Assembly: GCA_038317375.1 (NCBI GenBank)
Contig: JBBQBM010000001.1
Coordinates: 1,447 to 65,446, forward strand
Direction of reading: 5' to 3'
DNA length: 64,000 nucleotides
Source: Candidatus Saccharimonadales bacterium
GTDB taxonomy: Bacteria > Patescibacteriota > Saccharimonadia > Saccharimonadales > JAGQMS01
A program made the position numbers and the translations under genes. The notes below the pieces were generated by a model. It was not told where the DNA came from and searched no databases. It was given only the letters and a program-made list of their open reading frames with translations. Positions 6,835 to 60,827 of the stretch are shown in pieces. Every line of letters begins with the position of its first letter. Position 1 is the first letter of the stretch.

Positions 6835-7476
6835 CTAGTTGTTTAAGGATGCAATGGCTGCGTCGATCTTTTTAGTAAACAGTTCTAGCGAGCCAACTTC
6901 GGCGCTATCGAGCTTTTGACCATTTAGTATAAAAGTCGGAGTACCATTAATGGCATATTTGTCTTCGCCTTCTTTTCTGTCGGCGTTAATAGTGTTATTG
7001 ACGGCTTCACTCGCGAAATCTTCTTTGAATTTTGTTAAGTCTAGGCTCAGGCTGGTAGCATAATTTTCGAATACGACTACGGGGCTAGTTAGTGACGACC
7101 ATGATGTTTGATTCTGGTAGAGTAGCTCGTACATTTCAAAAAACTTACCCTGTAAAGAAGCTGCTTCTGCGGCGCGATGTGCGGCGACGGCATTTCTATG
7201 TATTGTTGTTAACGGAAAGTTACGAAAAGTGAACTTCAACTTATCGCCGTAGTCAGTTCTGATTTGTTCAATTATCGGGAAGAAACTACCACATGCTGGA
7301 CACTGAAAATCCCCGTACTCCACTAGCTCAACTCCACTCGTTCCTGCACCAGACGAATGTTTACTAACAACGGCAGTTGTAGTGCTTTTCGTATCTGCTT
7401 TGTCTTTGGTGAAGAAAAATACCCCGCCAATTAAGGCTATAACTGCTAGTAATACTATGCCAAATTTCTTGTCCAT
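6835..7476 (-). CDS. DsbA-family thiol:disulfide oxidoreductase (membrane anchored)
   Basis: N-terminal TM anchor and a thioredoxin-fold CPAC active site (FQCPACGSF). Confidence 0.85.
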   Translation of the reverse strand: MDKKFGIVLLAVIALIGGVFFFTKDKADTKSTTTAVVSKHSSGAGTSGVELVEYGDFQCPACGSFFPIIEQIRTDYGDKLKFTFRNFPLTTIHRNAVAAHRAAEAASLQGKFFEMYELLYQNQTSWSSLTSPVVVFENYATSLSLDLTKFKEDFASEAVNNTINADRKEGEDKYAINGTPTFILNGQKLDSAEVGSLELFTKKIDAAIASLNN

Positions 7477-7548
7477 ATATCGTAACTATACGACAAATCA
7501 TGAGGTGTCGCTAGCATAAGATCCCCAAAAAGGTTTAATATAAGCAAT

Positions 7549-8559
7549 ATGAGAATTGTATTACTTATAGGATTTTTTATTATTTCGTGCTTCAACATCT
7601 TACTAATTCGTAGCTTCGAATATATGAGCGTGCGCGAGCTCAAGCGCCAAGCCCGGAGTGGGAATATTAAAGCCGCCAGAGTTTATAAGGTTCGAGGTGT
7701 TTACGGTATTCAAGTCTGGATTTTATTATGGGGGGCAGTTGGTATAAGCACTTCAGCCGTGGTCTTGATTCTTAATAGTTCAGTAGCGACGTGGCTGGCA
7801 ATTGTTCTTAGCATTCCAATACTCGTTTTTTTGCACGCTGTATTGCCACGTATAAAGAGGCCCAAGCCAAGCATTAATCTTGCCTCGTCTATTAGCCCGC
7901 AGTTGGAAGCTGTTTTACGCCTATTTCGACCCTTACTTTTAGTCGTGACCCGACTTGTCGGACGCTGGATAAAAGACGAACCATTCACCCGCATACACAG
8001 CAAGGAAGAGCTTCTAGAAGTCTTAAACCATTCTGAAATGGCAACACGCGTCAGTAAAGACGAAGTTTTAATAGCGACTTCAGCGCTAACATTTGGAGAT
8101 GAGAATATAGGCAAATTTATGACGCCAATCGGTGTAGTTAAAACGGTTGCAGAAAAGGACGTACTAACTCCAGTTATGCTCGACGAACTTCATGACAGTG
8201 GTTTCTCGCGCTTTCCGGTTAAAGGCAGTGGCAATACCTACGTTGGTACTCTCTATTTCAAAGACGCTGTCAATATGGAGACTAGTCATGCCGTTAAGAA
8301 TATTATGCGAAAAAGTGTTTTTTACGTGAACGAATCGGCCCTACTAGATCAAGCTTTGAAGGCTTTCTTGAAGACCCAGCACCATTTGTTTATGGTGGTG
8401 AATGAATATGAAGACGTCGTTGGTGTTATTACAATTGAAGATATTTTAGAACGAATAATCGGCAAAAAAATTGTTGATGAATTTGACCAGTACGATGATC
8501 TTCGTGTGGTAGCAAAATCCCTCGCAGAAAAGCAGGTGAGCCAAGCAGACCATGTCTGA
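7549..8559 (+). CDS. CNNM/HlyC-CorC-type transporter (DUF21 TM domain plus CBS pair)
   Basis: N-terminal TM region followed by two CBS-like repeats (..VVGVITIEDILERIIG..). Confidence 0.75.
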   Translation: MRIVLLIGFFIISCFNILLIRSFEYMSVRELKRQARSGNIKAARVYKVRGVYGIQVWILLWGAVGISTSAVVLILNSSVATWLAIVLSIPILVFLHAVLPRIKRPKPSINLASSISPQLEAVLRLFRPLLLVVTRLVGRWIKDEPFTRIHSKEELLEVLNHSEMATRVSKDEVLIATSALTFGDENIGKFMTPIGVVKTVAEKDVLTPVMLDELHDSGFSRFPVKGSGNTYVGTLYFKDAVNMETSHAVKNIMRKSVFYVNESALLDQALKAFLKTQHHLFMVVNEYEDVVGVITIEDILERIIGKKIVDEFDQYDDLRVVAKSLAEKQVSQADHV

Positions 8560-8572
8560 TGTATAATCTGTA

Positions 8573-9889
8573 GTGATTATGCAAAGAGTTTTATCAAATG
8601 AAGTTAAGTCACATGTCGGCAAGTCAGCTTTAGTTACTGGCTGGCTTCATAAAAAACGTCTTCTCGGCGGACTGACTTTTATAAATATCCGGGACCGCGG
8701 TGGCTTAATCCAAGTGCTTATCGAGGACAAAAAAGAAGTCGAGAAGTTGCGCGGTTTACAAATCGGCACCGTCTTATCGGCTGAAGGCGATGTCATTAAA
8801 GAGGGCCGAGCACCTGGTGGGGTTGAAATGCACAACCCAAAACTTACGATTTTAGTACCGGTGGAGCACGAATCACCGATCGAAATCGACAAGCCACTCG
8901 ATCATAAGTCAGAAAACTTAAATACGCTTTTAGATAATCGTGTTGTTGGACTGCGTAACATTAAAGAAACGGCAATCTTCAAAATTCAGGATCGAGTTTT
9001 AGAAGGTGCTAGGCGCTACTTCTACCAAAACGGTTTTACTGAAATGAAGACTCCGAAACTTCTCGCAAAGCCGACAGAAGGCGGTGCAGAGGTTTTTACT
9101 ATGGACTATTTTGGCAAGACCGCGAGCTTAGCGCAGAGTGCCCAATTTTATAAGCAGATAATGGTTGGGGTTTTTGAACGGGTCTTTGAAATGGGTGGCA
9201 CTTACCGCGCCGAACCAAGTTCGACTACTCGCCACATGACAGAATATGTAACCATCGACTGCGAGATGGGATTCATTACTTTTGATGAACTACGAGAATT
9301 TGCCCATGGGTTACTAAAATCTGTAGTCGATTTTGTTTGGAGTGAATGCCCGGACGAGTTGAAACTATGGAACGCAGAGAAGCCGGTTCTGTCTGATAAG
9401 GCGGCATCAATCACTATGGCCGAAGTTCACGAACTTTACGAAAAGGCGACAAAAGATATTGTCCAGGACAAAAAAGATCTAACCCCAGCCGAGGAAAAGT
9501 GGATCTGTGAGTATGCCAAGGAAAATCTAGGGACAGAAGCAGTTTTTGTAACGGAATGGCCATCAAGTTCGATGAAGTTTTATCACAGGAAGACTGAAGG
9601 CAATGAAGAGATGTGTGATCGCTCAGACTTTTTGTTCCGTGGTCTCGAGATCATGACAGCGCCAATGCGCGAGAACCGCTACGACATTCTGATTAAACAG
9701 ATGAAAGAGCAGGGTCTAGACGAAAAGGAAGAGGGCTATCAGGCTTATCTGAGTGCCTTTAAATATGGCCTGCCGCCTCACGGAGGCTTCGGGCTTGGGC
9801 TCGAGCGACTTACGCAGAAAATAGTCGGTCTTAACAACATTAAAGAAGCGACCCTATTCCCACGCGACATCAATCGCCTCGCGCCATAA
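8573..9889 (+). CDS. aspS: aspartate--tRNA ligase, archaeal/eukaryotic type (class IIb)
   Basis: 438 aa. OB-fold N-terminus, YRAEPSSTTRHMTEY motif 2 region, and C-terminal HGGFGLGLERL...FPRDINRLAP typical of type-2 AspRS. Confidence 0.85.
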   Translation: MIMQRVLSNEVKSHVGKSALVTGWLHKKRLLGGLTFINIRDRGGLIQVLIEDKKEVEKLRGLQIGTVLSAEGDVIKEGRAPGGVEMHNPKLTILVPVEHESPIEIDKPLDHKSENLNTLLDNRVVGLRNIKETAIFKIQDRVLEGARRYFYQNGFTEMKTPKLLAKPTEGGAEVFTMDYFGKTASLAQSAQFYKQIMVGVFERVFEMGGTYRAEPSSTTRHMTEYVTIDCEMGFITFDELREFAHGLLKSVVDFVWSECPDELKLWNAEKPVLSDKAASITMAEVHELYEKATKDIVQDKKDLTPAEEKWICEYAKENLGTEAVFVTEWPSSSMKFYHRKTEGNEEMCDRSDFLFRGLEIMTAPMRENRYDILIKQMKEQGLDEKEEGYQAYLSAFKYGLPPHGGFGLGLERLTQKIVGLNNIKEATLFPRDINRLAP

Positions 9890-9915
9890 TAATACTTAAC
9901 ATGTTAAGTATTATT
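9888..9915. repeat. palindromic repeat copy 2 (AATAATACTTAACATGTTAAGTATTATT)
   Basis: Perfect 28-bp palindrome overlapping the aspS stop codon. Confidence 0.85.
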
Positions 9916-9919
9916 TGAC

Positions 9920-10297
9920 ATGACAATATCAGATAAAGAATTCGACGACATCATATCGTCCGCCATGGATGAATTGCCTCAAAAGTACATAACCGGACTT
10001 AATAATGTCTCGGTTGTAATTGCAGATGATCCGGACGAAAATCAACGAACAAAACTCAAGCTTCGGTGCCACGAAACATTGTTTGGGTTGTATGAGGGGA
10101 TTCCGTTAACCAAACGCGGTAATGGCTATAATCTTGTTCTGCCAGATAAAATTACACTTTTTAAGAACCCGCTACTGAGAGCTAGCGCTGATATCCAAGC
10201 GTTCCGCGAAAACACTAAGCGAACTCTTTGGCACGAGATTGCACACCACTATGGGCTAGATCATGAACGAATTCACAAACTCGAAAACAGTAACTAA
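9920..10297 (+). CDS. zincin-like metallopeptidase family protein (DUF1025-type)
   Basis: 125 aa with a C-terminal HEIAHHYG zinc-binding motif. Confidence 0.7.
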   Translation: MTISDKEFDDIISSAMDELPQKYITGLNNVSVVIADDPDENQRTKLKLRCHETLFGLYEGIPLTKRGNGYNLVLPDKITLFKNPLLRASADIQAFRENTKRTLWHEIAHHYGLDHERIHKLENSN

Positions 10298-10312
10298 AGT
10301 TATAATATGGTT

Positions 10313-10708
10313 ATGAAATATTTTCTGGTCAAAACCGATCCTGGGACCTACAGTCTCGAAGACTTTGAGCGTGATGATGAGACTGAGTGGGATGGCGTTC
10401 ATAACTATGAGGCGATTAATTATATAAAGACTATGAGTCCAGGCGATAAGGTCTATATCTATTTATCGCAGACTGACAAAGCGATAGTCGGCATGGGTGA
10501 AGTAACAGGTGAACCGTACGAGAACAAAGATGACCCGCGGTTTTCTTGGGCGGTACGGTTGAAGTTTATAAAAAGAACAAAGCCGGTGACTCTCAAGCAA
10601 GTCAAAGCCGAACCAAAACTGGCGAAGTTTAAGCTAGTTACTCATTCACGGTTAAGTGTAATGTCTGTTGACGATAGTGTCGCAGCTTGGATTAACTCTC
10701 GTCTTTAG
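10313..10708 (+). CDS. EVE (PUA-like) domain protein
   Basis: MKYFLVKTDPGTYSLEDFERD..WDGVHNYEA.NYIK.M..GD is the EVE domain N-terminus. Start moved to the second ATG because TATAAT 10301-10306 abuts the first ATG. Confidence 0.75.
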   Translation: MKYFLVKTDPGTYSLEDFERDDETEWDGVHNYEAINYIKTMSPGDKVYIYLSQTDKAIVGMGEVTGEPYENKDDPRFSWAVRLKFIKRTKPVTLKQVKAEPKLAKFKLVTHSRLSVMSVDDSVAAWINSRL

Positions 10709-11309
10709 AGTCGAGCGAATGCCAGAGAGCGAGAGAAACAGCGCTGCGATGCGGCGACCACGAAGAGCTCAATTTTTTCAGTTTTTCTGGAGTTAGCTTT
10801 TTGCCTGCAAATTTGTCGGCAGCGTTTCTAAGGCCCAAGTCACCTGACGAGAAAACGTCTGGTCGAGCCAGCGTAAATAGTAAAAACATTTCAGCCGTCC
10901 AACGCCCCACGCCTTTTAGCTGAACTAGCTCAGCGATGATCGACTCGTCTTCAAGTTCGTCTAGATGATTGAGTCTAACTGTGCCATCGGTTACCCCATT
11001 AGCAATGTTTAAGATATAACTGGCTTTCTGATTCGACAGCCCGACAGACCTGAGTTGTTCGATTGTGAAAGTCTTAACTATTTCAGGATCTTCTGGTTTC
11101 TCAACGAGGCTTGCGAACCGGCTCCAGATGATATCTGCAACTTTAGTAGAAAGCTGTTGCGAAACGATACTAGCGAATAACTCTCGGGCATACATAGGCG
11201 GTGGGGATTTTTTGATAGTTCTCTTAGTAAGAGCATAGTGCTTTATCAGCTCACTAACTTTTGGATCTTTGGACTCAAAGTATTTTATTGCTGAGTTTAT
11301 GTCGATCAT
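10692..11309 (-). CDS. DNA-3-methyladenine glycosylase II-like (HhH-GPD family)
   Basis: 205 aa with the helix-hairpin-helix region LVQLKGVGRWTAEMFLLF and a downstream Asp. Confidence 0.8.
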   Translation of the reverse strand: MIDINSAIKYFESKDPKVSELIKHYALTKRTIKKSPPPMYARELFASIVSQQLSTKVADIIWSRFASLVEKPEDPEIVKTFTIEQLRSVGLSNQKASYILNIANGVTDGTVRLNHLDELEDESIIAELVQLKGVGRWTAEMFLLFTLARPDVFSSGDLGLRNAADKFAGKKLTPEKLKKLSSSWSPHRSAVSLALWHSLDSKDES

Positions 11310-18132: not shown

Positions 18133-18208
18133 TGGTGGGGGCGGTTGGATTTGAACCGACGGCCAAAGGATTATGAGTCCTCTGCTCTAACCACTGAGCT
18201 ACGCCCCC
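18133..18208 (-). tRNA. tRNA with CAU anticodon (elongator Met or Ile2-lysidine type)
   Basis: Reverse complement GGGGGCGTAGCTCAGTGGTTAGAGC..CTCATAA..GGTTCAAATCC..CGCCCCCACCA folds as a cloverleaf; CCA is encoded; C11-G24 elongator-type D stem. Confidence 0.9.
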
Positions 18209-19953: not shown

Positions 19954-20028
19954 TGCGGGGTGGAGCAGTGGCAGCTCGCGTGGCTCATAACCACGAGGTC
20001 GCAGGTTCGAGTCCTGTCCCCGCAACCA
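19954..20028 (+). tRNA. tRNA-fMet (initiator-type, CAU)
   Basis: TGCGGGGTGGAGCAGTGGCAGCTCGCGTGGCTCATAACCACG..GGTTCGAGTCC..CCCCGCAACCA. A11-U24 in the D stem and a weak U1-A72 end pair are initiator features. Confidence 0.85.
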
Positions 20029-39927: not shown

Positions 39928-40004
39928 GGCGGCGTAGCTCAGTTGGTTAGAGCGCAGGACTCATAAGCCTGAGGTCACAAGTTCAATTCTTGTCGCCGCT
40001 ACCA
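39928..40004 (+). tRNA. tRNA with CAU anticodon (candidate tRNA-Ile2, the TilS substrate, or elongator Met)
   Basis: GGCGGCGTAGCTCAGTTGGTTAGAGC..CTCATAA..AGTTCAATTCT..CGCCGCTACCA. Lies 8 nt upstream of tilS. Confidence 0.85.
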
Positions 40005-52385: not shown

Positions 52386-53474
52386 ATGGCAAAACGAGAT
52401 TACTACGAAGTTTTAGGTGTCGGTAAGCAAGCATCGGCCGACGAGATAAAGAAAGCCTATCGCAAGGCTGCTATTGAACATCACCCCGATAAAGGAGGTG
52501 ACGAGGCCAAGTTCAAAGAAGTTGGCGAAGCCTACGAAGTTTTGAGTAATTCCGACAAAAGAAAACGTTACGACCAATTTGGTCATGCTGGGCTTGGCGG
52601 TGCCTCATCTGGCGGCACTGGAGGTTTCGGTGGTCAAGGTCAGGATACGCACTTTGACTTTGGTGATTTAGGCCTCGGCGATATCTTCTCGAGCTTTTTT
52701 GGGGGTGGTGCCCAGCATCAATCTAACCGCCAAACTAGGGGTCGTGATGTCGAAACATCTGTGGAGCTCGATTTTGACAAAGCAGTTTTTGGGACAGATA
52801 TCGACTTACGCCTTGAGCTCGAGGACAACTGTTCGCACTGCAAAGGCACGACTGCTGAACCTGGCCACGACCTAAAAACCTGCGAAACTTGCAAAGGTGC
52901 AGGCCAAGTAATGAATGTCACTCGAACTGTTTTTGGCAATATCCAACAAGCCAGTGTTTGCCCAACCTGTCATGGTAAAGGCAAAGTGCCAGAGAAGGTT
53001 TGCTCTGTCTGTCACGGTAGGGGTACTCAGCGTAAAGAGCAAAAGGTATCACTAAAAATTCCAGCTGGCATCGATGACGGGGCTACTATTCGCTTGCGTG
53101 AACATGGCGAGGCGATTGCTAACGGCCCAAAAGGCGACTTGTTCGTGAATATACGAGTCAAACCACACAAAAAGTTCATAAGAGAAGGCGATCTTATTCT
53201 AAGCGAACAGAATATCGACATGGTTGATGCCGCGTTAGGTACAGAAATTGAGGTCGAAACCGTCGACGGTATGGTCAAAATGAAGATTCCCGCCGGCACC
53301 CAGAGCGGTAGTGACTTTAAATTGTCTGGCCACGGTGTGCCACATATAAAGGGTGATTCTCGTGGCGCACACATAGTAGCGATTACTGTCGACACACCAG
53401 CAAAACTGTCTAAACATCAGCAGGAACTTCTTAAAGACTTCAAGAATGAAAAAAGCAGAGGCATTTTCGGTTAA
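52386..53474 (+). CDS. dnaJ: molecular chaperone DnaJ
   Basis: J domain with HPD, G/F region and four CxxCxGxG zinc-finger repeats. Confidence 0.95.
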
Positions 53475-53495
53475 AAAGCGCTAGAATATCTCTAA

Positions 53496-53606
53496 ATGCA
53501 TAAAAATAAAAAACAAGAAGGCTTTGTTACTTTGATATTGGTGCTAGCGGTTGTCTTGGTAGGAGCTGTAGCTGTAGCGTTTGTCCGCGTAAAGGCCCGT
53601 CAATAG
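53496..53606 (+). CDS. possible 36-aa single-TM peptide
   Basis: MHKNKKQEGFVTLILVLAVVLVGAVAVAFVRVKARQ; no obvious RBS; below the ORF-track cutoff. Confidence 0.3.
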   Translation: MHKNKKQEGFVTLILVLAVVLVGAVAVAFVRVKARQ

Positions 53607-53607
53607 A

Positions 53608-53636
53608 TTGACAATAACAGATTAATTTGGTATAAT
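53608..53636 (+). promoter_or_regulatory. consensus sigma70 promoter driving a leaderless mRNA
   Basis: TTGACA, 17 nt, TATAAT; the ATG at 53644 is 7 nt after the -10 box. Confidence 0.75.
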
Positions 53637-53643
53637 ACTACGC

Positions 53644-54258
53644 ATGAATACGCCTAACCACCCAAGTAATATTTCATCAGACCGACCAGTTGACCCAGGT
53701 GATTTAAAAATCATGCCCGAAACAATGCTTTCACCTGGTGAGATGCTCAATTTATCAGTAGAATTGCTGGCTAACTTTGAGGAAAAGTACCCTGAGATTG
53801 GTGCCATCCCTGTAGAAATCTACCCTGAGGCGGAAGGCTTTAACTCACAGTTAGAGGGACTAAGAATTTATACCCCAGGTGTCGGCGATCGACCATTATT
53901 TGATCCAACCAAAAGACCGGCTACCAAAGATCAGACACCAGAAAACACACCGCCAAAGGATTTTGCTACTTGGTTTGTTCAGTGTTTCGGAAAGACAGTC
54001 ACTATGCGTGCGCGTGCGCTACATGAACTACCCGAACCAGAAGATCTTCAACACAAGAAAGTACCTAGGTTGGTGAGAGAATTTTTAACCGCCAAAGATA
54101 GTGATGCTAAAACGTACGCTATGCTTAATTTAAGCAAGGTAATTGCGCACAATACCGGTCTTGAGATTGACGACGAAAGAACAGTTCAGGTAATAAGTGC
54201 CCATATCTGGCTGATTAATAAACTAAGTGCAGTTATCGCACAAGTCGAGGCAAGATAA
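53644..54258 (+). CDS. hypothetical protein
   Basis: 204 aa with a Pro-rich middle; no family recognised. Own promoter and terminator. Confidence 0.6.
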   Translation: MNTPNHPSNISSDRPVDPGDLKIMPETMLSPGEMLNLSVELLANFEEKYPEIGAIPVEIYPEAEGFNSQLEGLRIYTPGVGDRPLFDPTKRPATKDQTPENTPPKDFATWFVQCFGKTVTMRARALHELPEPEDLQHKKVPRLVREFLTAKDSDAKTYAMLNLSKVIAHNTGLEIDDERTVQVISAHIWLINKLSAVIAQVEAR

Positions 54259-54261
54259 TAG

Positions 54262-54297
54262 ATTTTTAGGCTTCTGCCTAAAAATGTTTGTTTATTT
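54262..54297 (+). terminator. intrinsic terminator
   Basis: ATTTTTAGGC-TTCT-GCCTAAAAAT followed by GTTTGTTTATTT. Confidence 0.7.
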
Positions 54298-54312
54298 AAG
54301 GAGGGACAGACG

Positions 54313-55230
54313 ATGAAAGACGTACTGGTATTCTTTAGTTTTAGGAAGCACAAGACTGGCTATTACCGGACTTTGTTCAAGCTGCTAAGCGCCGAGGCGT
54401 CAAAGCACGACCTAAAACTCTCTCAGGGATCTTTAAAAGACCTGCATATCCAGATTATTGAAAATCAAATGACGGTAACCGAGTCTATGACCGGACGGCG
54501 ATTAGATGACTTTGACGCGACTTATTTCGAATTATGGTACAAGGCACAGCAACAGGCGCTAGCGGCTGCACTTTATCTGACACGTAAGAATAAACAATTC
54601 ATCGGCCGCGAACTACTAGTTTCTATGCCAATCACAAAGATAGGCGAGATGGCTAAGATGGCCGATAATGATATTCCGCTTCCAAACACCTTTATGTCTA
54701 GTTCAAGAGAAATACTTAAAGTGTTTGAGAAGAATCCACCAATCGATTTCCCGATTATAGTTAAGTCTGCTGAAGGCTATGGAGGAAATGATAATTATTT
54801 AGTTAAGGATTACGCCACATTAAAGAAGACATTAGAAGAAAATAAAGGCATTGATTTTGTTGTTCAGGAGTTCATTCCTAACGATAGAGATTATCGGTGT
54901 TTAGTATTCGGCGGTGAGGTAAAACTTGTTTTAGAACGCAAGCGTTCGCCTGAGAATAGTACTCACTTGAACAATACGTCTCAGGGCGCCGAAGGAACTA
55001 TCGTCCCACTCTCAACATTGTCCGCGGAGTCAATTCAGAGTGTTTTAAGTGCTGCGAAGGTTCTAGGGCGAGATGAGTTCTGTGGGGCTGACTTAATGTT
55101 CGATATGAAGACCGGAGAGCACTATATCCTTGAGGTTAACCAGACGCCGCAAATCGAGATTGGGGCTTCTACAGACCAAAAGATGGCAGCGCTTTTAAAC
55201 TACCTAAAGAAGCTAGCGGGAGAGCAGTAA
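54313..55230 (+). CDS. RimK-like ATP-grasp ligase, paralog 1
   Basis: RBS AAGGAGGG. ..PIIVKSAEGYGG.., VVQEFIP..RDYRCLVFGG, ..THLNNTSQGAEG.., GADLMFD...HYILEVNQTP. Confidence 0.8.
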   Translation: MKDVLVFFSFRKHKTGYYRTLFKLLSAEASKHDLKLSQGSLKDLHIQIIENQMTVTESMTGRRLDDFDATYFELWYKAQQQALAAALYLTRKNKQFIGRELLVSMPITKIGEMAKMADNDIPLPNTFMSSSREILKVFEKNPPIDFPIIVKSAEGYGGNDNYLVKDYATLKKTLEENKGIDFVVQEFIPNDRDYRCLVFGGEVKLVLERKRSPENSTHLNNTSQGAEGTIVPLSTLSAESIQSVLSAAKVLGRDEFCGADLMFDMKTGEHYILEVNQTPQIEIGASTDQKMAALLNYLKKLAGEQ

Positions 55231-56609
55231 TGAAAAAAACCACACCAAAAGTTTTAGTTGTTTTTTCTGAACGACGTAGCGAGAACAGTACTTGGTTTGG
55301 CGGGTTTGTAAAGAGGCTTCAGAAGCGGCCGGGACTTGAGGGTGTTGACATTGATTATGTTGCGCTTGAGGATTTGATATTTGAGATAAAAGATAATAAG
55401 CCAAGCATTTTCGACATTCGGACAGAGAAATACATCAAAGATTATACTTGGGCATATTTCAAGCGTTGGATGAGTATGCCGGTCGAGGCGGCATCGCTAG
55501 CTATATTTCTGCAAGCGAACGGAGTACCATTTGCTGATAACTTAGTACTGACTGGCGTAAATGACGGCAAGCTTGCTTCTCAGTTTTTGTTTTGGGAAAA
55601 AGGAGTGCCGGTTCCTAACTCATATTACTGCGCATCGAAACACATAGGACTTATCTTAAAGCGGACCAAGCTTCCCTTTCCGGTGGTAGTTAAAGACATT
55701 GAGGGCCAAAAGGGCAGAATGAACTTCCTGGCTCGCAATAATAAGGAAGTCCTAAAGATTTATAGTGAAAATCCAGAGATTAAATTTATAATCCAAGAAT
55801 TCATTCCAAACAAATTTGACTGGCGGATACAGGTGTATGGTGGCCAGGCAGTTGTGGGCTATAAAAGGGTCGGCAAGAAGGGTAGCCACCTTAATAATGA
55901 ATCAACTGGCGGTACGTCATACCTAGTACCGCTGAATAAAATACCAACAAAAGTTTTGGAGCTTGCAGAGTTAGCGGCTGATGCGGTCGGACTTCAAGTT
56001 TCTGGAGTCGACGTACTCCCAAATCTTAAAAGCACTAAACACGTCGTCCTGGAGGCAAACCAAGGTTCACAAATTGTGACAGGCGATATTTCTGGTGAGA
56101 ATGTAGTTTGCATAGATGAATTTAATAAATATGTAACTCGAATGGCAAAGTCGCGAATCAAAGAAAATAAATATCTGCCTCGCAACAAGCTTCAAATAGT
56201 TGGATTGCACGAAGTTGTCGACCTAATAGAGCTTGGAATGTTTAATGCTCATGCTAAGGTTGATACAGGGGCTTATCGTTGCTCTATTCACGCTACAAAT
56301 ATTAAGGTCATAAAACGGGGCGGTAAAGAAGTACTACAATTTAGCGTTCCAGAGATAGCCAGGAAGGGCGTGTCTGAGGGCGAGCTAAGGCACGAGACAG
56401 AAGAGTTTTATGCTATGCCTGTTCGGAAGTCTGCAACCCACATCGAAAATAGGTACATAATCAAGACTAGGCTACGTATGGGAGGTCGAACATTTATAGC
56501 CTCCTTCAATCTTACGAATCGGGGGTCGATGAGATTTCCGATTCTGATTGGGCGTCGAGTCTTGAGTGGAAGGTTTTTAGTTAACACAGCATTAAGTACA
56601 AAGGAATAA
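55230..56609 (+). CDS. RimK-like ATP-grasp ligase, paralog 2, fused to a C-terminal retropepsin-like (DUF785 / putative ATP-dependent zinc protease family) domain
   Basis: TAATG overlap with paralog 1. ATP-grasp motifs (VVVKDIEGQKG, IIQEFIP..FDWRIQVYGG, SHLNNESTGG, GVDVLP...VVLEANQGS). C-terminal ..AKVDTGAYRCSIHA...FPILIGRRVL. Confidence 0.8.
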   Translation: MKKTTPKVLVVFSERRSENSTWFGGFVKRLQKRPGLEGVDIDYVALEDLIFEIKDNKPSIFDIRTEKYIKDYTWAYFKRWMSMPVEAASLAIFLQANGVPFADNLVLTGVNDGKLASQFLFWEKGVPVPNSYYCASKHIGLILKRTKLPFPVVVKDIEGQKGRMNFLARNNKEVLKIYSENPEIKFIIQEFIPNKFDWRIQVYGGQAVVGYKRVGKKGSHLNNESTGGTSYLVPLNKIPTKVLELAELAADAVGLQVSGVDVLPNLKSTKHVVLEANQGSQIVTGDISGENVVCIDEFNKYVTRMAKSRIKENKYLPRNKLQIVGLHEVVDLIELGMFNAHAKVDTGAYRCSIHATNIKVIKRGGKEVLQFSVPEIARKGVSEGELRHETEEFYAMPVRKSATHIENRYIIKTRLRMGGRTFIASFNLTNRGSMRFPILIGRRVLSGRFLVNTALSTKE

Positions 56610-56610
56610 T

Positions 56611-57516
56611 ATGAATATAGTAATTTTATCTAAAGGTTCGGGTAACTACACAACCAAGAGGCTAAAAGAGGTAGCACAACTTCGCGGACATAAGGTTCGG
56701 GTTATTAACTATGCCAAATGTTATATGACGGTCGAGAAGGGCAATCCGGTAGTTATGTATAAGGGTCAGCCGATCGAAGACATTGATGCGATCATACCTA
56801 GAATCGCACAGAGCCTTACAAAATATGGTACGGCAGTAGTCCGTCAATTTGAAATGAAGGGTGTCTTCACAACCGCGAGCTCAATTGCTATTAATAGGAC
56901 GCGCGATAAACTTCGCGCCTATCAACTTCTTGCGAAATACGGTATTGGAGTCCCGAAGACGGTGTTTGCCCGTGAGACTGCCGATTTTGATGATGTTTTA
57001 GAACTTGCCGGAGGTGCACCGGTAATTATCAAAGTCGCTCGTGGAACACACGGTAATGGTGTAGTGCTTGCTGAAACGCGCAAAGCCGCCAAAGCTGTAA
57101 TGCAGGCATTCTTTGTAGAGAGTGTGAGCTTTGTTGTGCAGGAATATATTGCAGAATCGGCCGGCAGCGACATCCGGGCACTAGTTGTTGGTGGACGCGT
57201 CGTAGCAAGCGTTAAACGACAGAGTCTTGACGACGACTTTAGGTCGAATACTCACCAAGGTGGAGTCGGTCAAAAGGTTCAGTTGACGCCAGAAGAAGAA
57301 AAGGTAGCAGTTCGGGCAGCCAAAGCTATGGGACTCCCTATTTGTGGCGTTGATATGATGCGATCTGAACGCGGTCCTCTAGTGCTTGAGGTTAACTCGT
57401 CTGCTAGTCTAAAGACACCAGAAAGAATAACTAAGCGTGATGTTGCTACGCAAATAATTGAATATGTCGAAAGAAATGCTAAACAAAAAAATCGTAAGGA
57501 CAAGATCGGCGCCTAG
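56611..57516 (+). CDS. rimK: RimK family alpha-L-glutamate ligase (ribosomal protein S6 modification type)
   Basis: Canonical RimK pattern: VIIKVARGTHGNGVVLAE, VVQEYI....DIRALVVGGRV, FRSNTHQGG, CGVDMM....PLVLEVNSS. Confidence 0.88.
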   Translation: MNIVILSKGSGNYTTKRLKEVAQLRGHKVRVINYAKCYMTVEKGNPVVMYKGQPIEDIDAIIPRIAQSLTKYGTAVVRQFEMKGVFTTASSIAINRTRDKLRAYQLLAKYGIGVPKTVFARETADFDDVLELAGGAPVIIKVARGTHGNGVVLAETRKAAKAVMQAFFVESVSFVVQEYIAESAGSDIRALVVGGRVVASVKRQSLDDDFRSNTHQGGVGQKVQLTPEEEKVAVRAAKAMGLPICGVDMMRSERGPLVLEVNSSASLKTPERITKRDVATQIIEYVERNAKQKNRKDKIGA

Positions 57517-57943
57517 ACTTGTTCTCGCAGTTGGTATGGTCTTGGTTGGGGTAGGGCTTGTGGCGTTTGGTTTGGGTGGAGTTTTAGAAAAGAAAGTCTA
57601 TATCCGTACGCCTAAAATGCTTATTAGAGCCGAGGTTTCTGATGACCAAACAGAACGAACCTTAGGACTGTCGGGGAGGGATAACTTGAGTGGTGGCAGG
57701 GCGATGCTGTTCGTATTTGACGAACCTGGCACGCACGGTATTTGGATGAAAGGTATGAAGTTTCCGATTGATATTGTTTGGCTGGATAAGAATAAAAGGG
57801 TAGTAACAATCGTGCCTAATGTTCAGGCAGCAAGTTACCCCAAGGTATTTGAGCCAAGCGAGCCCTCGCTTTATGTGATTGAATTTGCTTCTGGAAGATC
57901 TTCGGAGTTAGGGATAAAAACCAATCAAATACTTCATTGGTAG
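57458..57943 (+). CDS. DUF192 domain protein (membrane anchored)
   Basis: GLSGRDNL..GRAMLFVFDEPG..GIWMKGMKFPIDIVWLD is the DUF192 signature. Overlaps the rimK end; the real start may be 57464 or 57476. Confidence 0.75.
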   Translation: MNMSKEMLNKKIVRTRSAPRLVLAVGMVLVGVGLVAFGLGGVLEKKVYIRTPKMLIRAEVSDDQTERTLGLSGRDNLSGGRAMLFVFDEPGTHGIWMKGMKFPIDIVWLDKNKRVVTIVPNVQAASYPKVFEPSEPSLYVIEFASGRSSELGIKTNQILHW

Positions 57944-58453
57944 GTGTATCATAAGTTCATGAATGCTTACGTTTTAATTGCCATAATTGGTGGAGTGATT
58001 GGTATCTTGCCAATTGTTTGGCGCTCTAAAGGCACCTACGTCTTCCTGTTATTGTGTGCTGGAAGTTTGTTGAGTGCTTCGGTCAGTGGGTCGCTTGTCA
58101 GCGAGATACGTAGCGCTGCGTCAACCGAAAACATCCCTGTTCAAAACATCGTGCAAGGAGTTTTATTACTCCTGCCGGCGGTGCTGGCAATACTTATAAG
58201 CCGGGGCTCTGTTAAGAAAAAGAAGGCGCCCTTTCATCTACTGCCTTCGCTAGCGGCTGGAGTATTAGCCTATCTATGGTTTATTAGAGTTTTACCGTTC
58301 GATCAATTCTCGAGATTCGAAAACGCCGAGGTCACCCAACAACTTATGCGAATACGTGATACCGCCCTAGTGGCTGGGATTTTAAGTAGTATCGCGTTGG
58401 TATTTGTTGAGAAACCAAAACCCGACGAACTTGATTCAAAGAAAAAGAAATAG
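57944..58453 (+). CDS. hypothetical multi-pass membrane protein
   Basis: GTG start abutting the DUF192 stop (alternative ATG at 57959); four or five TM helices. Confidence 0.55.
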   Translation: MYHKFMNAYVLIAIIGGVIGILPIVWRSKGTYVFLLLCAGSLLSASVSGSLVSEIRSAASTENIPVQNIVQGVLLLLPAVLAILISRGSVKKKKAPFHLLPSLAAGVLAYLWFIRVLPFDQFSRFENAEVTQQLMRIRDTALVAGILSSIALVFVEKPKPDELDSKKKK

Positions 58454-58511
58454 CCCGAGACTAGTGTTGGTTGACTTTTGTTGTCAAAAATAAGATAATC
58501 ACCTCTGTTCC

Positions 58512-58588
58512 GGGTCCGTAGCTCAGCTGGTTAGAGCACCTGCCTTTTAAGCAGGGTGTCATGGGTTCAAGTCCCATCGGACCCTCCA
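58512..58588 (+). tRNA. tRNA-Lys (UUU)
   Basis: GGGTCCGTAGCTCAGCTGGTTAGAGC..CTTTTAA..GGTTCAAGTCCCAT CGGACCC T CCA. Confidence 0.92.
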
Positions 58589-58596
58589 AAACTAAC

Positions 58597-58625
58597 GCCC
58601 CACTCAAATGTGGGGCTTTTGTTTT
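58597..58625 (+). terminator. intrinsic terminator after tRNA-Lys
   Basis: GCCCCA-CTCAAATG-TGGGGC followed by TTTTGTTTT. Confidence 0.75.
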
Positions 58626-58626
58626 G

Positions 58627-58763
58627 GTCGTTCCAATGGATTTGAATTTATGACACGCCAGAAAGGGTGTCGTGGGTGAGAAATGCCTGTGGCATTTAGG
58701 AAACGAATCTTCCGATGCCAACTTGTTGGCAATCGAGAAGTTCGGGGGTCGCGGAACGTGACC
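58627..58763 (+). ncRNA. tRNA-linked multi-hairpin module, copy 2
   Basis: GATTTGAA, GACAC-GCCAGAAAGG-GTGTC, GGTGAGAA, ATGCC-TGT-GGCAT, AAACGAATCTTC, TGCCAA-CTTG-TTGGCA, GAAGTTCGGGGG, GGTCGC-GGAAC-GTGACC. Confidence 0.45.
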
Positions 58764-58783
58764 AAGTCCCATCGGACCCTCCA
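58763..58783 (+). repeat. exact 21-nt duplicate of the tRNA-Lys 3' end
   Basis: CAAGTCCCATCGGACCCTCCA is identical to 58568-58588. Confidence 0.9.
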
Positions 58784-58838
58784 CATTCCTATACGTTAGC
58801 CCTGAAGTCTATTTATTGGGCTATTGTATACTGCAATA

Positions 58839-59309
58839 ATGGATTCATCGCAAAAAGCTAAATACATTATCGAGAACACTGGCATTATGGTTATCGCAAC
58901 GGCCGACAGCACAGGAAAGCCGTGGATATCACCCGTAGGTTTTACGTACGACGATAATCACAATCTATATTGGGTATCGTATAAGAAAGCCCTACACTCC
59001 GAAAATATTGTCGGTAGACCAGAGGTTGCTATTACTATTTTTGGCAAGTTGCCTAGTGGCGATACAGATGGAGTTTATATAGACGCAACGGCTCATGAGT
59101 TAAGGAATGATCCTGAGATTCGACTGGCAATGTCTTTATTTGCCAAAAGACGCCCACAAATTTCTAAATTCACGGTGAATACGGTAAGAGACGTTACTTG
59201 CGATGCGGTATGGAGAATGTATAAAGCTGTCCCTGTGAGTATCTCAAAACGTGCAGACAAAGTAATCGACGGACAGTCGATTACTGTTCGCGAACCGGTG
59301 ACCCTATGA
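58839..59309 (+). CDS. pyridoxamine 5'-phosphate oxidase family (FMN-binding split barrel) protein
   Basis: Trimmed to MDSSQKAKY (TATACT 6 nt upstream). ..MVIATADSTGKPWISPVGF....LYWVS pattern. Confidence 0.7.
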   Translation: MDSSQKAKYIIENTGIMVIATADSTGKPWISPVGFTYDDNHNLYWVSYKKALHSENIVGRPEVAITIFGKLPSGDTDGVYIDATAHELRNDPEIRLAMSLFAKRRPQISKFTVNTVRDVTCDAVWRMYKAVPVSISKRADKVIDGQSITVREPVTL

Positions 59310-59313
59310 TTGA

Positions 59314-59341
59314 AATAATACTTAACATGTTAAGTATTATT
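59314..59341. repeat. palindromic repeat copy 5 (AATAATACTTAACATGTTAAGTATTATT)
   Basis: Identical to the copy at 9888-9915; lies 5 nt after the stop codon at 59307-59309. Confidence 0.85.
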
Positions 59342-59384
59342 TAGTAAGTTTAATTCATTCAGCCGAACTGATATATTTGGAGTA

Positions 59385-60827
59385 ATGCTATTTTCGAGGA
59401 TTATTACTATGATCTTCGATCATCGGTTTCGAAGAACAACCTTTCTAATATTCGGTAGCCTAGGCTTCTTGGGCGGATCGCTCTATGCGCTACAGGGTAG
59501 TGCTGGCTGGGCTTGGCTGATCCCAGCTTTCTTCTTTGCGCCGGCGCTAAAGGACCGTCGCTTTGTAGCGCTGGTAGTCGTTATGTATGGATGTTTCATC
59601 GGCGGAGTTATTAGAGGTAACCACGCGCTCGCAAAAGAGGACGTGCTACGCCAGTTCATGGGCCAGAAAGTGACGCTTGATGCTGTGATTACGGACGACG
59701 GCTATTATGACTACAAAAGGAGGGTGACCTTCACGGCCAACGTGTTTGAGATTTTGTCGCCAGAACGAGTCAAGGTTGACGTGCCGCTACGGATAAATAC
59801 CTTTGTACTATCATCTGCTACTCGCGGAGAAGTAGTGAGAGTAACAGGAAAGATTTTCCCTACGCTTGGTAATGTGGCTGGGTCGATTGGCTATGCTGAG
59901 GTCGAGACTTTAGGTACGACCGTAAATTTTTTGGACCTGGCGAGACAAAAGTTCACAGCTGGGCTACGAAACAGTTTGCCGGAACCAACGGCATCTTTTG
60001 CGGCCGGTATTTTAATTGGTCAAAGATCGTCATTGACTAGCAAGTGGCAAGATATTATTCGTGATGCCGGAATAACACATATTATCGCTGTGTCGGGCTA
60101 TAACCTGACCATCTTAGTAAGATTTACGCGAAGACTATTCAAGAGAAAGTCTCGCTATCAGGTATTAGTTAGTAGCGCACTGCTCGTTACTGCTTTCGTT
60201 ATGATTACTGGTCTTAGCCCTTCGATCTTACGGGCGATAATCGTGGTGATCCTATTACAGCTGAGCTGGTTCTATGGCCGGAAGATCCATCCGATTGTAC
60301 TACTCAGCTTATCGGCAGCGATCTCAGTACTTATTGACCCGTTCCAGCTTTGGAGAAGCGTTGGTTGGTATTTATCGTTCGCGGCTTTTTTTGGAGTAAT
60401 TGTTATGGCGCCGCTTCTTGTGTCTAAAAAACGCGAAAAATCTATCCTTGCCTTACTCATCACGGAGAGTTTATCTGCCGGTCTTATGACATTGCCGATC
60501 ATTGCTACGGTTTTTGGTAGAGTCTCAGTTGTTAGTATTTTTGCGAACTTGCTCGTGACCCCACTAGTTCCCCTGGCAATGTTGCTCAGTTTCATAGCCG
60601 GATTAGCTGGATGGATACTTCCGGCTATGTCTGGGTGGTTCGCGTTACCGGCACGGTTCTTATTAACCTATATGCTCGACATCGCCAATATCGTGTCGCG
60701 TTTGCCAGGCGCACGACTTGGCCTGAGTGTTAATGCATTAGTACTAGCAATATTTTATGCGTTACTCTGTGGTGGAATTTGGATTTTGCATCGACACAGA
60801 AAACCTAAACTATTAGTTCTAGACTGA
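59385..60827 (+). CDS. comEC: ComEC/Rec2 family competence channel protein (no metallo-beta-lactamase domain)
   Basis: ..GITHIIAVSGYNLTIL.. and the multi-TM competence domain; 480 aa. Confidence 0.8.
   Translation: MLFSRIITMIFDHRFRRTTFLIFGSLGFLGGSLYALQGSAGWAWLIPAFFFAPALKDRRFVALVVVMYGCFIGGVIRGNHALAKEDVLRQFMGQKVTLDAVITDDGYYDYKRRVTFTANVFEILSPERVKVDVPLRINTFVLSSATRGEVVRVTGKIFPTLGNVAGSIGYAEVETLGTTVNFLDLARQKFTAGLRNSLPEPTASFAAGILIGQRSSLTSKWQDIIRDAGITHIIAVSGYNLTILVRFTRRLFKRKSRYQVLVSSALLVTAFVMITGLSPSILRAIIVVILLQLSWFYGRKIHPIVLLSLSAAISVLIDPFQLWRSVGWYLSFAAFFGVIVMAPLLVSKKREKSILALLITESLSAGLMTLPIIATVFGRVSVVSIFANLLVTPLVPLAMLLSFIAGLAGWILPAMSGWFALPARFLLTYMLDIANIVSRLPGARLGLSVNALVLAIFYALLCGGIWILHRHRKPKLLVLD

Follow-up and report, generated by a model that had tools for sequence, protein, structure and literature searches.

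Why would a bacterium with a reduced genome encode three RimK-type ATP-grasp ligases side by side? The question is raised by a 64,000-nucleotide stretch of DNA (the window) from a Candidatus Saccharimonadales bacterium (assembly GCA_038317375.1, contig JBBQBM010000001.1). Here, three consecutive open reading frames (ORFs), termed g1, g2 and g3, were found to carry the domain PF08443 exactly where a first-pass annotation, made from the sequence alone, had drawn them as three ligase genes (Table 1). That annotation had proposed a multi-step amino-acid ligation pathway in a streamlined genome. The closest relatives are metagenome-assembled genomes (MAGs) labelled Candidatus Saccharibacteria or Saccharimonadales (~0.8–1 Mb in those sampled); as the complete chromosomes among them measure ~0.8 Mb, the premise of a reduced genome is sound, and a multi-step or multi-writer system is a reasonable reading of the locus. 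The annotation had also found no evident substrate and had treated LysW-carrier, cofactor and graspetide analogies as equals, and this part did not hold. It missed a RimB-type protease domain in g2 (residues 319–456), which together with the neighboring RimK points to the system acting on ribosomal protein S6. The operon is not an orphan pathway but elaborates RimK–RimB in a lineage-specific manner, through a ligase::RimB architecture that is new and a large ligase family that is uncharacterized. We judge it probable that it constitutes an expanded RimK–RimB module of Saccharibacteria (TM7), in which several writers and one eraser serve peptide tailing. For comparison, relatives of g2 were scanned in one genome per species (480 stretches), and the gene content of the best 80 loci was classified.

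A RimB-like protease domain beside a canonical RimK

The C-terminal part of g2 matched PF05618 over residues 319–456 with an E value of 5e-19 (69 bits, Pfam cut-off of 27). Its catalytic motif D345-T-G-A is intact (D345 codon at 56,262–56,264), an LIGRR motif is also there, and D345, G347 and A348 are invariant among 15 fusion proteins. The domain aligns to PDB 2pma and to the RloA entries 9g59 and 9g58 with DTGA conserved, and it ends 1 nt before the rimK start, so that it adjoins rimK. RimB itself is a dimeric, retropepsin-like DTG endopeptidase that cleaves runs of at least 5–6 Glu, binds RimK and stimulates poly-Glu synthesis (PMC11957791, PMC10092738), the catalytic aspartate in the Pseudomonas fluorescens enzyme being D31 (PMC11957791). 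A RimB–RimK model in PMC10092738 sets the RimB dimer at the entrances to the ligase active sites. By its score on the RimB equivalog model, given below, the g2 domain is best classed as RimB-like rather than as a RimB equivalog.

The third gene, g3, encodes both Rimk_N (PF18030, 6.3e-37, residues 1–94) and RimK (PF08443, 1.5e-58, residues 97–286) domains and aligns to Pseudomonas aeruginosa RimK (7qyr) over residues 1–290 with an E value of 7e-91. On the RimK-family model TIGR00768 (cut-off of 143.4 bits), g3 scored 243 bits, compared to 83.1 for g1 and 76.9 for g2, in agreement with the proposal that only the third gene is canonical. The RimK motifs quoted for the three genes were also recovered, except that g2 reads LEAN instead of LEVN. 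P. aeruginosa RimK contacts the poly-Glu chain through S7, R8, S14, R64, S68, R189 and N262 (PMC10092738), and at these positions g3 has S7, K8, T14, R64, S68, R189 and N262, that is, five identical and two conservative residues. In Pseudomonas, RimK adds α-linked Glu to the C terminus of S6 (RpsF) and also makes free poly-α-Glu (PMC11957791, PMC10092738). By prediction, g3 is a canonical RimK of this kind, an α-l-glutamate ligase for the S6 C terminus and also a poly-α-Glu synthetase.

The S6 proteins of relatives are in line with this assignment. S6 encoded at the related locus L028 terminates in KKAKEE, and 16 of its 21 close homologs end in -EE. RimK of Escherichia coli extends an S6 that ends in SEE. 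Because S6 of the relatives mostly carries the kind of end that RimK extends, S6 is a credible substrate of g3 in this lineage; for this particular genome, it is an inference only.

That g3 is a RimK and that g2 contains a RimB-type protease can be held jointly with high confidence, and the two together assign the operon to the RimK–RimB system already known. As in the Pseudomonas rimABK system (Little 2016, PMC4741518; Grenga 2020, PMC7343187; Thompson 2022, PMC10092738; Little 2025, PMC11957791), a canonical RimK stands beside a RimB-type DTG protease, and S6 of relatives mostly ends in -EE. Unlike in Pseudomonas, the RimB moiety forms the C terminus of a divergent ligase instead of a free 150-aa protein, two further RimK-family ligases with a remodeled substrate loop are present (g1 and the N-terminal domain of g2, termed g2N), and the operon lacks a gene for the EAL protein RimA.

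The divergent ligases g1 and g2N

The two divergent ligases share 28% identity over their full length (E value of 2e-40; 2.4e-63 in the hhalign profile–profile comparison). Identity to g3 is ~30% and limited to 140–170 aa, and hhalign relates both to the RimK family with a probability of 99.2–99.4% (99.2% for g1). When 175 ATP-grasp sequences of the retrieved loci were arranged in a neighbor-joining tree, g1 and g2N fell into clades of their own, apart from RimK, and Saccharibacteria RimK clustered with RimK of Bacteroidota and Pseudomonas. Because of these separate clades, g1 and g2N are best regarded as old paralogs of each other and not as recent duplicates of RimK, in line with the first-pass annotation, which had called them divergent paralogs; the alternative that all three genes are recent duplicates of an S6-type RimK with conserved substrate residues is removed. 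Between the two, g1 is the second, more conserved paralog of the divergent ligase of g2.

AlphaFold (AF2) monomer models of g1 and g2 reached a pLDDT of 92.4 and 84.3, respectively, with a floppy, low-confidence linker at residues 312–319 of g2. Foldseek searches of the PDB returned ArgX, RimK and LysX as the top matches both for g1 (E values of 1e-15 to 1e-16) and for g2N, with ArgX 3vpb first in each case and the graspetide ligase PsnB lower in the lists. The matched subfamily consists of enzymes that ligate amino acids onto protein C termini. The additional ATP-grasps could stem from another RimK-like pathway, such as the maturation of a graspetide (microviridin-type) ribosomally synthesized and post-translationally modified peptide, ligation to a LysW carrier (LysX/ArgX) or cofactor glutamylation (CofF/MptN). 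Besides the rank of ArgX and the appearance of PsnB, weak partial matches to the LysX, MptN and CofF models (E values of 1e-7 to 1e-18) and a downstream gene with weak similarity to the PPOX ‘F420-dependent’ families favor such an origin. However, the scores stay far below the cut-offs for LysX (TIGR02144, 52–66 versus 276 bits), MptN (48–58 versus 350) and CofF (28–34 versus 300), the PPOX-like gene is not syntenic (cluster of size 1) and the constant neighbors of the ligases are rimB and rimK. Neither LysW, nor lysY/Z/J/K-type neighbors, nor a precursor peptide was found in the window or in the 80 related loci. The absence of a LysW-like or graspetide-precursor-like ORF had been noted before, and indeed the only small ORF in the short intergenic spaces encodes a 36-aa membrane peptide. 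LysX and ArgX share the fold subfamily of g1 and g2N and attach an amino acid to a carrier protein at its C-terminal Glu, but the window contains no LysW carrier or lysine/arginine pathway genes, and the equivalog score is far under its cut-off. An origin in any of these pathways is thus extremely unlikely. A graspetide maturase, considered separately, was rejected: the MvdC model TIGR04185 was matched by g3 only (25.8 bits versus a cut-off of 425) and not by g1 or g2, and no precursor-like ORF was seen.

To compare active sites, RimK residues were mapped through family alignments of 72 RimK, 26 g1 and 28 g2N sequences. The ATP lysines K100 and K141, the residues D187 and R189 and the Mg ligands D248, E260 and N262 (RimK numbering) are invariant in all three families. 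Their equivalents are K109, K151, D193, R195, D260, E274 and N276 in g1 (invariant in 26 orthologs) and K114, K155, D197, R199, D261, E275 and N277 in g2N (invariant in 28 orthologs). Since the catalytic ATP and Mg residues are kept, all three ligases, including g1 and g2N, are predicted to be catalytically active. The substrate side is different. Where RimK has the invariant loop F210-R211-S212-N213-x-H215, g1 and g2N share the sequence H-L-N-N-T-S, which is just as invariant, and the tail-binding R64, found in 72 of 72 RimK sequences, corresponds to E73 in g1 (Glu in 24 of 26) and to K78 in g2N (28 of 28).

These patterns also bear on whether g1, g2N or both might be non-enzymes, namely degenerate RimK copies with a scaffolding or regulatory role toward RimK and RimB, much like an accessory subunit. 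Scores below the RimK-family cut-off and a tight translational coupling that suggests a complex would suit such a role, as would the modulation of RimK activity by partner proteins that is described for Pseudomonas (PMC7343187, PMC11957791). A non-catalytic function is nevertheless very unlikely, as the ATP-, Mg- and acyl-phosphate-site residues are invariant across the 26 g1 and 28 g2N orthologs and the remodeled loop is itself invariant, the pattern of an active enzyme and not of a decaying site. The reading of g1 and g2N as pseudo-enzymes was discarded because of the same residue invariance. Catalytic residues that are invariant, combined with a loop and an R64 position that are altered family-wide, argue instead for active enzymes with a different, conserved specificity. 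Given the remodeled loop and the change at R64, we infer that g1 and g2N ligate something other than what RimK ligates, either a different amino acid or a tail in a different acceptor state (initiation, capping or mixed tail).

The g1 family is sizeable and uncharacterized. It comprises 315 clusters at 90% identity, and the g1 profile retrieved 504 clusters at 50% identity (E ≤ 1e-30), which include proteins of ~300 aa and of ~440–470 aa with the ligase at either end. In the source records, g1-family proteins are named only ‘ATP-grasp domain-containing protein’ or ‘hypothetical protein’.

Conserved layouts, repeated fusions and the nature of the product

The layout of the window, in which a divergent ligase is followed by a divergent ligase::RimB fusion and RimK, was found in 27 loci including the window, and three contigs sampled independently through g1 homologs (L082–L084) have the same three-gene trio. 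With 26 related loci and three independently sampled ones sharing it, the arrangement is far beyond chance, and the concern that it might lack conservation in related genomes is removed. In a further 21 loci, the order is divergent ligase, free RimB and RimK, with the unfused RimB in the position of the g2 domain; this order is the obvious candidate precursor of the window architecture. Two loci encode the opposite and apparently independent fusion, RimB::divergent ligase, followed by RimK (confirmed with Pfam), one has a single divergent ligase::RimB with RimK, and 14 loci (some Saccharibacteria and the Bacteroidota) contain RimB and RimK only. RimK and RimB are retained in many of the Saccharibacteria genomes sampled, and one or two additional dedicated ligases accompany them in many. 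In most Saccharibacteria, the ligase/RimB block lies between dnaK-dnaJ and comEC. Nanosynbacter, of which cultured strains exist, is an example of the same operon type (compare L015–L020). The g1 ortholog of one Nanosynbacter MAG (L016, 7,520–8,420) is split into ORFs of 172 and 155 aa, owing either to a frameshift or assembly error or to pseudogenization.

One Saccharimonadales MAG combines two fusions (L014, 7,986–10,783, identified with Pfam). Behind a divergent ligase, it encodes g2N::RimB and then a RimB::RimK hybrid in consecutive genes, so that two RimB domains are present and each of these ligases has a protease domain of its own. It is the only related locus with a true RimB::RimK hybrid. 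By domain content, RimB has been joined to a ligase in at least three different ways. Within a single phylum, RimB has become fused to RimK and, in either order, to a divergent ligase. Such repeated, apparently independent fusion points to a direct functional coupling, and this evolutionary evidence is the strongest argument for RimB–ligase coupling.

Related fusions and pairings are known elsewhere. RimBK hybrids, with RimB N-terminal to a canonical RimK, occur in some Flavobacteriales and Rhodobacterales and in Desulfotalea (psychrophila DP2392) (PMC11957791). Like these, g2 covalently joins a RimB domain to a RimK-family ATP-grasp ligase; unlike these, it has the reversed order with the ligase N-terminal and RimB C-terminal, its ligase is of the divergent type and a separate RimK is encoded next door. 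The ligase::RimB architecture thereby extends the hybrid described in 2025 and may help explain RimB–ligase coupling. In the RloABC operon of P. aeruginosa, a secreted RimB-like protease is paired with a divergent ATP-grasp protein (PMC12239564). There too, a PF05618 protease is encoded with a divergent RimK-related ATP-grasp, and the g2 C terminus aligns to RloA, as noted above. However, RloA is secreted by means of a signal peptide and its operon includes RloB, a seven-transmembrane inactive transglutaminase, whereas the protease in the window is fused to a cytoplasmic ligase, lacks an RloB-like gene nearby and scores well under the NCBIfam RloA1–3 cut-offs.

The expanded RimK–RimB module is proposed from what was observed directly: the identities of the domains, the conserved residues, the synteny, the recurrent fusions and the -EE ends of S6 in relatives. 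In the proposed mechanism, g3 would add α-linked Glu in an ATP-dependent reaction to the -EE C terminus of S6, which would have to be its substrate in this genome too, and would also form free poly-α-Glu. The RimB domain tethered to g2N would trim poly-Glu and probably activate its ligase partners. As additional writers, g1 and g2N would make their own additions while physically associated with RimK and the RimB domain, presumably within a complex.

Several points weigh against this interpretation. The activities of the Saccharibacteria proteins from the operon are predictions, the sequence does not reveal which amino acid g1 or g2N would add, and the residue mapping relied on profile alignment and not on superposed structures. 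On the equivalog model NF007764 (‘S6--L-glutamate ligase’), g3 scored 325.4 bits, 6 short of the cut-off of 331, with an alignment spanning 1–294 of 300, which we take as a marginal miss. The protease domain of g2 scored 79.3 bits (2.4e-22) on the NCBIfam RimB model NF052261, compared to a cut-off of 200, and its specificity for poly-Glu can therefore not be assumed. A search of the window and the 80 loci with E. coli S6 and L028 S6 as queries found no rpsF in the window, and S6 C termini are thus legible in relatives only. Finally, Rim-type ligases need not act on S6, and the Desulfotalea RimBK hybrid gave no S6 glutamylation in vitro (PMC11957791).

Alternatively, the product could be a free poly- or oligo-amino-acid, built and processed jointly by the three ligases and the RimB domain, and not a protein tail. 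Candidates would be poly-α-glutamate or a cyanophycin-like polymer (mixed or branched), but also an envelope component, an osmolyte or a store of amino acids, with the exported DUF192 and membrane proteins handling the product. The genes for these two proteins do lie 3′ of rimK, and RimK makes free poly-α-Glu in vitro, stimulated by RimB (PMC11957791). The cyanophycin synthetase model TIGR02068 was partially matched by g2 (3e-9) and g3 (5.6e-21), a Mur-ligase-like gene is located between g2 and rimK in L028 and L083, and genes for a Peptidase S51 and for L-amino-acid-ligase-like proteins belong to the cluster in L049 and L054. In cyanophycin synthetase, a Mur-ligase-like domain forms the second catalytic module beside the ATP-grasp module. 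However, the window has no Mur-ligase-like, S51 or L-amino-acid-ligase-like gene, and in relatives such genes are sporadic. Moreover, the structures nearest to g1 and g2N are those of protein-tail ligases, the -EE ends of S6 suit tailing of a protein and many loci with the same ligase trio have no DUF192. We consider a free polymer unlikely. A cyanophycin synthetase-like system in particular was discarded, the window being without a gene for the Mur-ligase-like module that only L028 and L083 have.

The expanded RimK–RimB module may reach beyond S6 elongation. RimB has been fused to ligases repeatedly, the remodeled loop is invariant, the residue that binds the tail has switched its charge and peptidases gather with ligases at a single locus, all of which suggests a C-terminal ‘tail code’ of Saccharibacteria, ribosomal or more widely proteomic. 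RimK would elongate poly-Glu on S6, g1 and g2N would initiate, cap or diversify tails with other residues and RimB would trim them, joined in certain lineages by enzymes of the MATCAP-like, S51 and Mur-ligase-like kinds. We put this forward as a doubtful proposal. The C-terminal tail of tubulin, which is acidic, is written by TTL/TTLL ATP-grasp enzymes and erased by MATCAP, vasohibin and CCP peptidases. The likeness, which is one of analogy only, lies in several ATP-grasp writers combined with peptidase erasers, and MATCAP-family (PF08014) genes do occur 5′ of the rim genes in three related loci. In contrast to the tubulin system, the homology is no closer than the ATP-grasp superfamily (TTL matches are faint), the window has no MATCAP-like gene and the target would be a ribosomal protein. 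Iyer et al. (2009) reportedly predicted peptide-tagging systems made up of RimK and a protease in their work on amidoligases.

Saccharibacteria are obligate epibionts with few regulators. A tail code, if true, would let a genome-reduced epibiont retune translation post-translationally without transcription factors. Few systems are known in bacteria by which a ribosomal protein is edited reversibly and the proteome thereby reshaped. RimK–RimB is one of them and has been studied so far in Proteobacteria only; among the papers searched, none linked RimK to Saccharibacteria. The retention of RimK and RimB, the added ligases and the repeated protease–ligase fusions suggest that peptide tailing matters in Saccharibacteria.

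Transcription signals, neighboring genes and other observations

The features of the locus are collected in Table 1. The junctions were read directly from the sequence and are as first described, with overlapping or closely abutting genes followed by those for the DUF192 protein and the membrane protein. The g1 stop codon TAA and the g2 start codon ATG overlap as TAATG (55,228–55,232), and g2 and g3 are separated by 1 nt (TAA, t, ATG at 56,607–56,613). The ORF of g4 starts with TTG at 57,458, has in-frame ATG codons at 57,464 and 57,476 and overlaps the g3 stop codon TAG (57,514–57,516). Because start and stop codons overlap or abut, coupled translation and a multi-enzyme complex of the operon products are suggested. 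The promoter 5′ of g0 is the sole perfect sigma-70-like match in a scan of 53,300–59,400. The hairpin between g0 and g1 is possibly a weak terminator or attenuator, and the one 3′ of tRNA-Lys is the probable end of the transcription unit.

Table 1. Features of the ligase operon and its surroundings in the window
Feature	Position	Strand	Remarks
Sigma-70-like promoter, TTGACA-17-TATAAT with extended -10 TG	53,608–53,636	+	12/12 matches; predicted from sequence
g0, 204-aa protein	53,644–54,258	+	No Pfam or NCBIfam match
AT-rich hairpin in the g0/g1 gap, 10-bp stem with 3 GC pairs, then T-rich run	54,262–54,285	+	
g1, divergent RimK-family ATP-grasp ligase, 305 aa	54,313–55,230	+	PF08443, 1.8e-16
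g2, whole ORF, 459 aa	55,230–56,609	+	Ligase domain and RimB-like domain
g2N, second divergent RimK-family ATP-grasp domain, residues ~1–312	55,230–56,165	+	PF08443, 4.8e-18
g2 C-terminal part, RimB-like retropepsin-type aspartic endopeptidase domain, residues 319–459	56,184–56,609	+	PF05618, NF052261
g3, canonical RimK (predicted), 301 aa	56,611–57,516	+	Rimk_N and RimK domains
g4, DUF192 protein with N-terminal hydrophobic anchor, 161 aa	57,458–57,943	+	PF02643, 1.3e-25 (Pfam)
g5, multi-pass membrane protein, 169 aa	57,944–58,453	+	No significant Pfam match
tRNA-Lys	58,512–58,588		Between g5 and terminator-like hairpin
GC-rich intrinsic-terminator-like hairpin 3′ of tRNA-Lys	58,597–58,616	+	

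The 204-aa protein g0 and the DUF192 protein g4 had been considered as partners of the ligases. Both genes are adjacent, as described, but the link is weak. Roughly two fifths of the Saccharibacteria loci have DUF192 3′ of rimK, and homologs of g0 at the slot 5′ of the ligases were detected in two close relatives only (L001 and L002, among the 80 related loci). Without detectable relatives beyond these two, g0 probably lies outside the conserved module and is an unlikely core component. As a conserved member of the module, g0 was rejected, since hhalign gave less than 3% probability against the other slot occupants (c13, the MATCAP-like proteins, c19, c59 and c141). A small multi-pass membrane protein of the g5 kind (clusters c7/c9) is encoded 3′ of the rim genes in most Saccharibacteria loci.

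The slot directly 5′ of the ligases varies by lineage and is a hot spot. Its occupants include a further, very divergent ATP-grasp of ~350 aa (clusters c19, c50 and c58) and MATCAP/DUF1704-family metallocarboxypeptidase-like genes (PF08014) directly 5′ of the RimB/ligase genes in L052 (6,975–7,886; 9.4e-18), L061 (6,561–7,874) and L070 (6,506–7,972). The same slot can hold the 600-aa HExxH family c13 (nine ORFs in the cluster, detected by tblastn in ten loci), the hhalign match of which to MATCAP is weak and not significant (E value of 0.018, probability of 2.6%). In L082 (4,840–5,544), L034 (6,749–7,594), L044 (5,888–6,718) and L053 (5,676–6,518), a gene for a GGDEF protein (diguanylate cyclase) separates dnaJ from the ligases and is transcribed divergently, from the minus strand. 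Its presence in these relatives recalls the c-di-GMP control of the Pseudomonas Rim system and deserves attention because c-di-GMP and the EAL protein RimA control Pseudomonas RimK; the window has no GGDEF gene at this dnaJ–ligase position.

Further genes join the cluster in some relatives. The Mur-ligase-like gene (Mur_ligase_M and Mur_ligase_C) lies between the ligase::RimB fusion and rimK on the plus strand of L028 (7,264–8,556) and L083 (8,318–9,559), and the Peptidase S51 gene (cyanophycinase/PepE family) lies in the clusters of L049 and L054 (at about 7,000–11,100). Some of the loci L049, L054, L041, L045, L047 and L058 encode a fourth, weakly RimK-like ATP-grasp of ~330 aa; this set has up to four ATP-grasp genes per locus, and five in L041. 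An L-amino-acid-ligase-like ATP-grasp_4 gene occurs on the opposite strand in six loci. The window contains none of the MATCAP-like, S51, Mur-ligase-like and L-amino-acid-ligase-like genes of its relatives.

The 36-aa ORF mentioned above (53,496–53,606, plus strand) is located between dnaJ and the g0 promoter and encodes a small single-helix membrane peptide, MHKNKKQEGFVTLILVLAVVLVGAVAVAFVRVKARQ. Similar ORFs of 30–37 aa with the motif Q.GFI[TP][ML]I...RV were found at the same relative position in at least ten related loci (L002, L003, L024, L066, L054, L053/L057, L037, L039, L044 and L042); their individual E values are weak, and position and pattern are conserved. The PPOX-like gene downstream (58,824–59,309, plus strand) encodes a PNPOx-like protein (PF01243, 7.9e-12), its matches to the ‘F420-dependent’ PPOX-class families being weak and sub-threshold, and is probably unrelated to the ligases because it is not syntenic in relatives. 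Elsewhere in the window, tRNA genes with the anticodon CAT occur three times in less than 22 kb (18,133–18,208, minus strand; 19,954–20,028 and 39,928–40,004, plus strand) and presumably encode initiator Met, elongator Met and lysidine-modified Ile tRNAs.

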